Shown here in pieces: positions 8,201 to 11,200 of a stretch of DNA of 64,000 bases; within the stretch, counting starts at the first letter, position 1, and every line of letters starts with the position of its first letter. The translations under genes and the position numbers were made by a program. The notes below the pieces were generated by a model, which saw nothing but the letters and a program-made list of their open reading frames with translations, did not search any database and had not been told where the DNA came from. This DNA is from Dictyostelium discoideum (lineage: Eukaryota), in NCBI GenBank assembly GCA_000004695.1, contig CM000153.2, positions 3,776,001 to 3,840,000 on the forward strand. Reading direction: 5' to 3'.

Positions 8201-11200
8201 TTTTCATTCATTGTTGGATTAAGTAATATATCGATAATCCTTTCTGGTGATACAATGATTTTTGGTTTTTCTATTGTCAATGGTGCTTGAGAATCTGTAT
8301 TACCAATAACATCTTGTGGATCAAATTGTTCGTTATCATAAAAATATTCTTCATTTAATTCATCAATAAAATCTTCATTTGATAAACTTACATATGAACT
8401 TGGTGTTTTAATCATTAATGTTTTATATATTCTTTCAAAATTTGATTCTTCTCTATTTGTAATTGGAGCTTCTTTATTTTGCTTATTATTATTATTATTA
8501 TTATTATTATTATTATTATTATTATTATTATTATTATTATTATTATTATTATTATTATTATTATTATTATTATTATTATTATTATTATTATTATTATTAT
8601 TATTATTATTATTATTATTATTGGTAATATCATTTTTTACCTTTTCATCACTTTTATTGTTGGTTTCTAATTTATTTATTGATATTGAACAAGTTTGAGT
8701 TGATTGTTGATTATTTTTAGTTATTGATAGTTCTGTTGTTTCTGTTATTGGTTTTGGACCATTAAAAACACACATGGAAATTGAATTCTCTTTACATTTT
8801 CTAGATTTCTTTCTTTTGATTATGAACCACAGAGAGAATACTATTGAAAAACCTACAAATACTAATACAATTGGTAAGATTATTGCCAATTTATGTATTT
8901 TACTAGTTTCTCCAAAAATAGGTGAATCACTTGATGAATAGATTGCCATTGATGTTAAATAAATATCACCTTTTGTTGTAAATGCTATATTAATCTTTTC
9001 TAATGAATTGATATTTTCATAATTGAATGTTACGTTTTTAAATATTGGACCTTGATTACTTTGAAATGGTTCTAATAGATATACTGGTTCACTACCAATG
9101 TAAACTGATAATGGACTAGTTTGTTGGTCAATTGGTACATATGTGAAAAATAATTGAATTTGGTTGAATGGTGCGCTACTATCTATTGTTGTTGTAATTA
9201 TTACTGGTTGATTGGAATTTAATGATGTTACACCACTTGAAAATAAATCATTTAATTCGTTGGATGGTGCAACATTTGGTAATTCTGTTACAAACTTTGA
9301 ATTATTCGATATTGTACACTTTCCACCTATTTCTTGGCAACCACTTTCAAATGGATTACTTTCAATAATAAATTGATGATCTGGTTTCGAATTTACCATT
9401 GCCAACCCATAATAAAAAGAATAACCACTAAATACTGTAATCTTTGGTAAATCAATAACATATAGTATAGATTGAATATATTTTATAGTAACTCTAAAAT
9501 TTATTGAACTTTCTTTGCTTGATGATAAAGGAAATATACACCCATTCTCTTTTGAACTAGCATTTATAATGGTCTCTGAAATTGAATCTTTTTCAGTAGT
9601 AGTGGTGGTGAAAATACATTGAATGTTTTCAACATTGAGTGATGGATCAATTAATTCAAATAGTACGTTTACATTTAATAATGAACTTTTTACTGACTGG
9701 TATGGTTTATTTGGAAATATTGATAATATCTTCAATTTATTTAAAGTACCTTCATCACTATAATAGTAAGGTGTAAATATTGAACCATAAATATGATTTT
9801 TTGATATTTCAATAATATTTGATTGATTGAAAAAGTAAGAGTCTCTAACACTGATAGTTGACGAAATTTCTCTTACTCTTGCTAATACTGAATAGTTTAA
9901 ATATGAATTTACTATATCAACTCTTTTTATTTTCCCATCAATTCTAAAATTTCCAAAACCTGTGACATTTTCTAATAATAATATATTGTTATCTAAATTT
10001 GCTAGAATTGGACTTTGTAATTTTAAATTTCTAATTGAATAATAGGTTCCTAACTCTTCATTATTTCCATTACCATTAATTACTAAAAAAAAATTTAAAT
10101 TATTTGATAAAGTGCTAAAAAATGGATTTGAAATTTTAAAATCTGCTGAATGCTGCACTAAACTAGATATTGTCTTTGAATAGTTGTAACATGGTGCATA
10201 ACAATCTTCAGCGAAACCAGTTATGTTTGATCTGTTGGCAATAAAGTTAAAGTTGAATGCATTTATTTGACCAATGAAAATATCGTCATCTGATTTTATA
10301 TTTGGAGAAAGTGAATATATACCATTACCTTCATACCCATAATCCATACTATTACTATTAATGTGATTTCTTGAAGGTGATACATTTCCTGCTGTTGTTA
10401 ATGAATAGAAATTATTTGATGATTGAATATTTTCTGTACCAAACTGAGCTATTAAATTTGAACCTGAGTTACTAACAATTAAATTATTCTCCATCTTAAC
10501 ATTTGGTATTCCAACCAAAGAATACCAATGGAGATCTCGTTTGATTGGTTTCAATTATTCCACTATTTTCAATGGTAACATTATTTGAAAGTTCTATATA
10601 TAATGAATTTCTAAATCTTTGATTTTTACCTACAATAATATCAATGGCATTATTTTGATTATTTGGCGAGAAAATCAGTTTCGTGTCTTGGTACTCTTCA
10701 TTTGTAGTTATACCAAAAGATCGTATAATGGTATTTTGGATATTCACATTTACACCACCGCATATATAAATTGAAGATCCATTGGTAGAGGTTGACGTTA
10801 AACCCACTGGTTGATTACTAGTAGTGAAAAAAAGTTTTATATTCTTATCTGAACTTGGAATTTGTAAATTAGTAACGTTGATTTGATTTAAAGAATGTGT
10901 AAATTTTGATGTCCTGACATAAGGAAATGAGTCACTAACAATTGATACATCTTCAAGTTGATCCCATTCTGGTGCTTTATCTAACTGGTTTCGCTGAGTG
11001 TACCATAGATTTACCAACGAGTGATATTGAGCCTCCTAAAACAAGTATTCCTGGGAAAAAACCAAATGGATCAATAGGTGAATCATTAAGATCTACAAAT
11101 TCCATATTACAACCATCGCATATGAAACTACCTCCAGGCAAAATAATCAATGCACCAATGCTAAACCCGTTATTTGAAATGTTTAATGAACCTTCCACGC

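Follow-up and report, generated by a model that had tools for sequence, protein, structure and literature searches.

The receptor-like kinase gene gdt3 of Dictyostelium discoideum AX4, a member of the GDT (growth-differentiation transition) family, is very probably a young unprocessed pseudogene, i. e. one of the duplication type that has retained its introns. The gene, catalogued as Gdt3_ps (DDB0219954p), occupies positions 5232..11680 on the minus strand of a 64,000-nucleotide stretch of the AX4 genome (GCA_000004695.1, contig CM000153.2, 3,776,001 to 3,840,000), which is referred to as the window and whose numbering is used throughout. Two independent small indels (insertions or deletions), a 20-nt deletion and a 7-nt insertion, arose in the AX4 lineage towards the 5' end of the large ectodomain exon, and each displaces the reading frame by +1. 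A ribosome that starts in the signal-peptide exon would then meet a stop after 191 codons, at TAA 10979-10977, and no secreted protein composed of ectodomain, transmembrane segment and kinase would arise from the normal start. That the remainder of the gene appears flawless would be due to the recency of its inactivation. Hence, Gdt3_ps presumably yields no functional product.

The locus is the Gdt3_ps published in 'The Dictyostelium Kinome' by Goldberg et al. 2006 (PLoS Genet 2:e38, PMC1420674), whose Table S2 lists 'DDB0219954p Gdt3_ps' as TKL, Gdt and pseudogene and marks an X for a frameshift both at ...HSAKPVXDKAPEW... and at the second site of the gene. Since the same gene and the same two sites appear in Table S2, the frameshift finding as such has already been known since 2006. 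The conceptual translation derived from the window agrees with the Table S2 sequence from its start to beyond the second frameshift mark. The kinome survey counts 15 kinase pseudogenes, identified through frameshifts or stops within conserved regions, and states that its authors went back to the sequencing reads in all cases where frameshifts stood in the way of the best gene model; as an earlier pseudogene report it cites the Gdt2 paper of Chibalina et al. 2004 (PMC1420674). A literature search on gdt3 and the DDB identifiers returned nothing further, and exact look-ups of three frame-specific gdt3 open reading frames (ORFs), aimed at Logan read assemblies, gave no match. What is added here are the exact lesions, their polarity, their confirmation in a second assembly, a recent date, and the decay of the neighbouring genes gdt5 and DDB_G0285893. 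The locus would be a gene that died recently in an ordinary way and calls for no unusual mode of translation. Its significance is largely confined to clean annotation; in a newer D. discoideum assembly, an automated pipeline has once more predicted a protein of 1975 residues over this catalogued pseudogene.

Gene model and family assignment

Gdt3_ps comprises six exons (11680-11623, 11562-11332, 11260-7822, 7700-7294, 7192-7044 and 6967-5232) with a spliced length of 6020 nt, which equals 2 modulo 3. Its five introns are canonical GT/AG introns of 60-121 nt with a GC content of 3-20%, in a very AT-rich window (15-35% GC in 2-kb windows). Once a single base is taken out at each shift site, an uninterrupted ORF of 2005 codons runs across all six exons, encoding in this order a hydrophobic N-terminus, a large ectodomain, a transmembrane-like segment, a complete kinase domain and Asn-rich tails. 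The hydrophobic N-terminus and the transmembrane-like segment, the latter followed by KRKKSRK, were read by eye from the translation and are putative. Exons 4-6 (5232..7700) encode the intact TKL kinase domain and an Asn-rich tail. The kinase domain matches PF07714 (E=3e-51, positions 3-256 of 258) as well as PF00069 (E=1.5e-49) in Pfam, and catalytic motifs, DFG among them, are present in the translation and are rated intact in Table S2 of the kinome paper (PMC1420674).

A Pfam search of the ectodomain found no domain. By homology, the repaired ectodomain is assigned to the Dictyostelium GDT receptor-like kinase family: it matches 25 GDT-family proteins from Dictyostelium with a best E value of 3e-208 and, for most of them, a query coverage of 93-100%. 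These include gdt5 and DDB_G0278879, which carries the UniRef name 'probable serine/threonine-protein kinase'. Identities to the family members found in this search amount to 40-46%; no match exceeded 46%, and the gdt3 orthologues of 1782-2009 residues that are called in related genomes (see below) were not returned. The impression from the homology search that gdt3 is unannotated everywhere was therefore discarded in view of these called orthologues at the syntenic loci. The called orthologues are very Asn-rich and have no Pfam record despite their kinase domain. The protein index seems to lack long proteins of low complexity, and a negative search there is weak evidence.

Introns 1 and 2 of Gdt3_ps share their positions with gdt5 and with the orthologue in a related genome labelled D. 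discoideum (L001, introduced below). Given these retained intron positions, the gene was not retrotransposed, as befits an unprocessed pseudogene.

The two lesions and their origin

Three-frame translation and the ORF list reveal that the frame of exon 3 changes twice by +1 on the minus strand, near 10987 and 10510. The first open segment (11297-10980) ends with ...SAKPVR at the stop TAA 10979-10977, where translation from the Gdt3_ps ATG terminates after 191 codons. The second (11035-10499) reads ...LDKAPEWDQ... and closes with TAA 10498-10496, while the third (10554-7711) remains open for 948 codons. In the stretch between the lesions (10499..10986), the sequence is out of frame (+1) and still homologous coding sequence that aligns codon-for-codon with the orthologues; its last 93 residues are 57% identical to gdt5. 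The remainder of exon 3 (7822..10505), covered by the 948-codon ORF in the third frame, encodes the rest of the ectodomain, the putative transmembrane segment and the juxtamembrane region. Both disabling indels thus sit in otherwise conserved coding sequence, each followed by a stop and flanked by sequence that aligns codon-for-codon with the orthologues, and no further disabling lesion was found in about 6 kb of Gdt3_ps coding sequence.

A sequence-only reading of the window had already placed two +1 changes within about 500 nt of one exon, which the three open segments bear out; the two strings it quoted, AAACCAGTTAGATAAAGCA (start 10991) and TGGAATACCAAATGTT (start 10513), are both present. 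Its view that no secreted ectodomain would be made from the signal-peptide exon likewise agrees with the stop 191 codons in. It had, however, described the lesions as single extra nucleotides, and this description does not survive comparison with four orthologues.

Syntenic loci were fetched through orthologues of a neighbouring gene (P0006, P0002, P0005 and P0007) from an assembly labelled D. discoideum (L001, GCA_054859355.1), D. citrinum (L002), D. cf. discoideum (L003, GCA_054859205.1) and D. dimigraforme (L004). They share the gene order alanine transaminase (AlaAT) - phosphodiesterase - SPX/EXS - gdt5 - DDB_G0285893 - gdt3, and each has a called gene of 1782-2009 residues at the gdt3 position. 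Exon 3 was aligned five ways with AX4 and also pairwise; the DNA identity of AX4 to the orthologues in this exon is 81-91%.

In the five-way alignment, lesion 1 (10977..10991, minus strand) is the junction of a 20-nt deletion followed by the premature TAA 10979-10977. The alignment places the junction between 10987 and 10986, with an uncertainty of a few nucleotides. AX4 reads GCGAAACC/AGTTAGATAAAG at this site, the slash denoting the junction (at greater length, GCGAAACC/AGTTAGAT). All four orthologues possess 20 additional nucleotides here: in L003, CCTTTAGAAAATGGATTGTTAGAGTTA encodes LENGLLE, and the sequence across the site reads GCGAAACCTTTAGAAAATGGATTGTTAGAGTTAAAT, encoding AKPLENGLLELN. 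Lesion 2 (10506..10512, minus strand), about 470 nt downstream of lesion 1, is a 7-nt insertion, GGAATAC, between T and CA of the serine codon in GGT TCA AAT GTT (G S N V), with the stop TAA 10498-10496 behind it. AX4 accordingly reads TTTGGTT-GGAATAC-CAAATGTTAAG, whereas the four orthologues lack the seven nucleotides and read TTTGGTTCAAAyGTwAAG (FFGSNVK). Exon 3 forms a single ORF of 1120-1221 codons in every one of the four, including the two most distant relatives (dS, the synonymous divergence, ≈ 0.42-0.44 from AX4). Gdt2 is also in frame at both positions according to its kinome sequence, with ...SAKPIEDNVLEVN... and ...VFFQSNVNISG... (Table S2, PMC1420674). Because the lesions are missing from all four syntenic orthologues and Gdt2 is in frame too, both are evidently derived in the AX4 lineage.

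The relationships among these genomes deserve a remark. L001, despite its label D. discoideum, has only about 87% DNA identity to AX4 at gdt3 (dS≈0.22), and L003, labelled 'cf. discoideum', is closer (dS≈0.12). At gdt5 this order is reversed, with a dS of 0.14 for L001 and 0.17 for L003. Hence, either the species assignment of L001 and L003 or the genealogy of this region is not straightforward. Moreover, L003 carries a DDE_1 transposase gene (18714-20052) between the orthologues of DDB_G0285893 and gdt3, which is absent in AX4, L001, L002 and L004.

Selection and timing

Substitutions per branch were counted by parsimony over 1059 gap-free codons of exon 3. The AX4 branch of gdt3 has accumulated 23 synonymous and 22 nonsynonymous changes (ω, the ratio of nonsynonymous to synonymous rates, ≈0.25), and the sister branch leading to L003 24 and 31, respectively (ω≈0.34). 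Pairwise ω values among the five gdt3 sequences range from 0.28 to 0.37. Relaxed constraint, with ω near 1, was thus not found on the AX4 branch: neutrality is rejected (P=7e-6), and no difference from the sister branch was seen (P=0.55). Neutral evolution could account for no more than about 25% of the AX4 branch. Because this branch is constrained and there is no other disabling lesion in about 6 kb, we infer that gdt3 was inactivated recently and is a young pseudogene. The sequence-only reading had considered, as one of two options, a pseudogene so young that its kinase ORF is still perfect, and this option is favoured by the published Gdt3_ps entry, the AX4-specific lesions, the second assembly described below and the ω of about 0.25.

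Alternative explanations

That the lesions are sequencing or assembly errors of the AX4 reference in a gene that is really intact was a reasonable concern, since this reference is an old assembly of Sanger reads from very AT-rich DNA and four other kinase genes were corrected by the kinome authors after read inspection (PMC1420674). These authors, however, examined reads and still called Gdt3_ps a pseudogene (PMC1420674). In addition, indels of 20 and 7 nt within complex sequence are not homopolymer miscounts. A second chromosome-level assembly, GCA_054883475.1 (L005), contains a sequence of 5,576,411 bp, compared with 5,450,249 bp for AX4 chromosome 4, that is colinear with 2384-23626 of the window. 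All 18 blocks of difference between the two fall within introns or intergenic DNA, inside or beside A/T homopolymer runs, and at both gdt3 lesions L005 is identical to AX4 base for base. Because this second assembly carries the same bases, the lesions are evidently not assembly errors, and an artefact, which the sequence-only reading had named as a possible refutation, appears highly improbable. The same assembly (locus-tag prefix ACTFIT) calls a protein of 1975 residues at L005 2837-9284, corresponding to 5232-11680 of the window. This automated model is 92 nt short of the spliced coding sequence, so that the frameshifts have apparently been masked once more. A rescue by splicing, with cryptic introns at the two sites or one intron across both that removes the lesions and restores the frame, could draw on exactly this model, as the shortfall of 92 nt relative to 6020 nt arithmetically fits two mini-introns of, e. 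g., 40 + 52 nt. Every frame-restoring GT..AG pair across the lesion sites was enumerated. All of these candidates have a GC content of 23-44%, as opposed to 3-20% in the five real introns, and any combination that sums to 92 nt includes at least one intron of 25-52 nt, which is below the 60-250 nt given as typical in the kinome paper (PMC1420674). The sequence to be removed is, furthermore, conserved coding sequence in the orthologues. The kinome paper itself counts 'masking by bogus introns' among the artefacts of annotation and disproved it by reverse transcription PCR (RT-PCR) or expressed sequence tags (ESTs) for pseudogenes with transcript evidence (PMC1420674). Rescue introns were hence rejected on grounds of GC content, length and conservation; no plausible frame-restoring intron is left among all GT..AG candidates, and cryptic splicing, the other refutation envisaged in the sequence-only reading, has very little to recommend it.

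Programmed +1 ribosomal frameshifting at both sites, the second option of the sequence-only reading, would deliver a full-length receptor kinase from the locus as it stands. Both shifts are indeed +1 with a stop within a few codons (site 1 reads CCA GTT AGA TAA A, site 2 AAT ACC AAA TGT TAA G), the AGA-TAA-A at site 1 loosely resembles stop-adjacent +1 sites, and the downstream ORF is perfect. Such recoding would nevertheless be without any conservation, as the four orthologues and other GDT paralogues are in frame, and it would require two independent efficient events at sites that arose as indels. Even after shifting, the product would be without the seven conserved residues LENGLLE. Inspection by eye revealed no known +1 motif at the two sites, with no formal motif scan made. 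With orthologues that need no frame change in exon 3 and shifts that go back to the loss of 20 nt and the gain of 7 nt, recoding is not supported by the sequence comparison and is the least credible of the readings considered. Somewhat less remote, albeit still improbable, is a living locus that produces an N-terminally truncated protein from an internal Met (e. g. MENNLIV at 10494), without a signal peptide and comprising part of the ectodomain, the transmembrane segment and the kinase. The frame is uninterrupted from such a Met to the normal stop across canonical introns, the kinase motifs are intact, and the AX4 branch is not relaxed; all of this is equally expected of a very recent pseudogene. 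The internal start is about 1.2 kb into the transcript behind several ATGs and ORFs, so that it would be poorly translated. Moreover, an N-terminal extracellular region of about 520 residues cannot cross the membrane without a signal peptide, which speaks against a receptor of this form.

Several points weigh against a young, dead gdt3 as the explanation of the locus. A truncated product that is still in use would also agree with the constrained ω and with more than 1600 codons of flawless reading frame downstream. With the comparison confined to AX4, L005 and the four related genomes, the lesions may be species-wide or restricted to NC4/AX. L005 is presumably independent of the reference, as suggested by the differing homopolymer lengths and the contig sizes of 5.58 versus 5.45 Mb. 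Finally, residual transcription, in the form of single ESTs or positive RT-PCR, is reported for 9 of the 15 pseudogenes in the kinome paper (PMC1420674).

The neighbouring genes gdt5 and DDB_G0285893

The chromosomal context of Gdt3_ps is that of AX4 chromosome 4, to which DDB_G0285893 (12417-13603, plus strand), an exon of alanine transaminase (24826-26271) and DDB_G0285913 (42293-45817) match exactly. The paralogue against which the sequence-only reading had judged the frame of gdt3 is gdt5 (DDB_G0285895, Q54MK0) at 13566..17854 on the minus strand, a locus that matches P0009. An assignment to gdt1 was rejected because the Gdt1 sequence in the kinome table differs. In a tblastn search of three pieces against the window, the homologous parts of gdt5 (17333-14796) lie in a single frame, as had been claimed. 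As an intact reference it is nonetheless unsuitable, since gdt5 is itself damaged in AX4 by a frameshift of its own and by loss of its kinase domain.

The frameshift is a 1-nt deletion at about 17334 (17330-17340, minus strand) early in exon 3, by which a conserved Cys codon loses its G (CTT TGT GTG becomes CTT T-TG TGG). It is absent from all four relatives, and the AX4 model in GenBank and UniProt (1176 residues) hides it in an extended intron (...FLITK/ESIYSF...). The larger lesion is a deletion of about 2.96 kb in AX4 relative to L001-L004 (14277-17233 in L003), with its junction at 13587/13584. It took away most of the gdt5 kinase domain and, from the convergent gene DDB_G0285893, the 3' two-thirds; the latter gene encodes 366 residues in AX4 and 1023-1042 in the relatives. 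The reference strain thus owes its gdt5 without a kinase domain to this deletion. L005 shares both the 1-nt deletion and the 2.96-kb deletion junction. The surviving part of DDB_G0285893, which looks secreted, holds the stretch ...PEWDPLQTSTFISLGGTVTLTG..., resembling a GDT ectodomain motif; its product might accordingly have an extracellular fold akin to that of the adjacent GDT proteins.

With the 1-nt deletion repaired, exon 3 of gdt5 (14079-17403) stays open over 1108 codons. Its AX4 branch carries about 74 nonsynonymous and 30 synonymous changes (ω≈0.69), compared with ω values of 0.29-0.35 on sister branches, and the difference between 0.69 and 0.29 is significant (P=0.008). This pattern could reflect relaxed constraint or a changed function after loss of the kinase, and it may be that gdt5, too, is a pseudogene or else a truncated remnant. 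The two genes are same-strand neighbours with only the convergent DDB_G0285893 between them, have an ectodomain identity of about 50%, and are both damaged in the AX4 lineage. They differ in that gdt5 has lost most of its kinase domain and shows apparently relaxed constraint, whereas gdt3 keeps a complete kinase ORF without relaxation. In view of the ω of about 0.69 versus 0.29 on the sister branch, the decay of gdt5 looks older than that of gdt3.

It is conceivable, if rather doubtful, that the gdt3-gdt5 pair has been dismantled stepwise in the NC4/AX4 lineage, beginning with gdt5 (kinase loss, relaxation and frameshift) and followed recently by gdt3. If so, it would point to two neighbouring receptors that worked together and to a standard laboratory strain lacking a growth-to-differentiation sensing module kept by its relatives, and gdt5 would be a decaying relic although databases list a normal protein. 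In any case, the database-listed gdt5 is truncated and frameshifted in the reference strain, while the relatives keep full-length kinase versions of both gdt3 and gdt5.

Comparison with known systems

The kinome paper describes six GDT-family kinases with the architecture signal peptide-ectodomain-transmembrane segment-kinase (PMC1420674). The functional GDT kinases Gdt1, Gdt2, Gdt4, Gdt6, Gdt8 and Gdt9 and the intact gdt3 orthologues have in common a signal peptide, a GDT ectodomain, a single transmembrane segment and a TKL kinase domain. AX4 Gdt3_ps departs from them in that, owing to the two indels, no ectodomain would be made from its start codon, whereas the orthologues read through. With programmed +1 frameshifting, as in antizyme, in yeast Ty1, Ty3, EST3 and ABP140 or in Euplotes, it shares only a +1 change near an in-frame stop. 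Unlike in these systems, the shift in Gdt3_ps is unconserved, was born from indels, would demand two events and is not accompanied by a known motif recognisable by eye. The closest counterpart is the Gdt3_ps entry of Goldberg et al. 2006, with the same conceptual protein, the same two frameshift marks and the same TKL/GDT family assignment, and as far as this Table S2 entry goes there is no substantive difference. Where the entry marks 'frameshift' only, the marks are resolved here into a 20-nt deletion and a 7-nt insertion.

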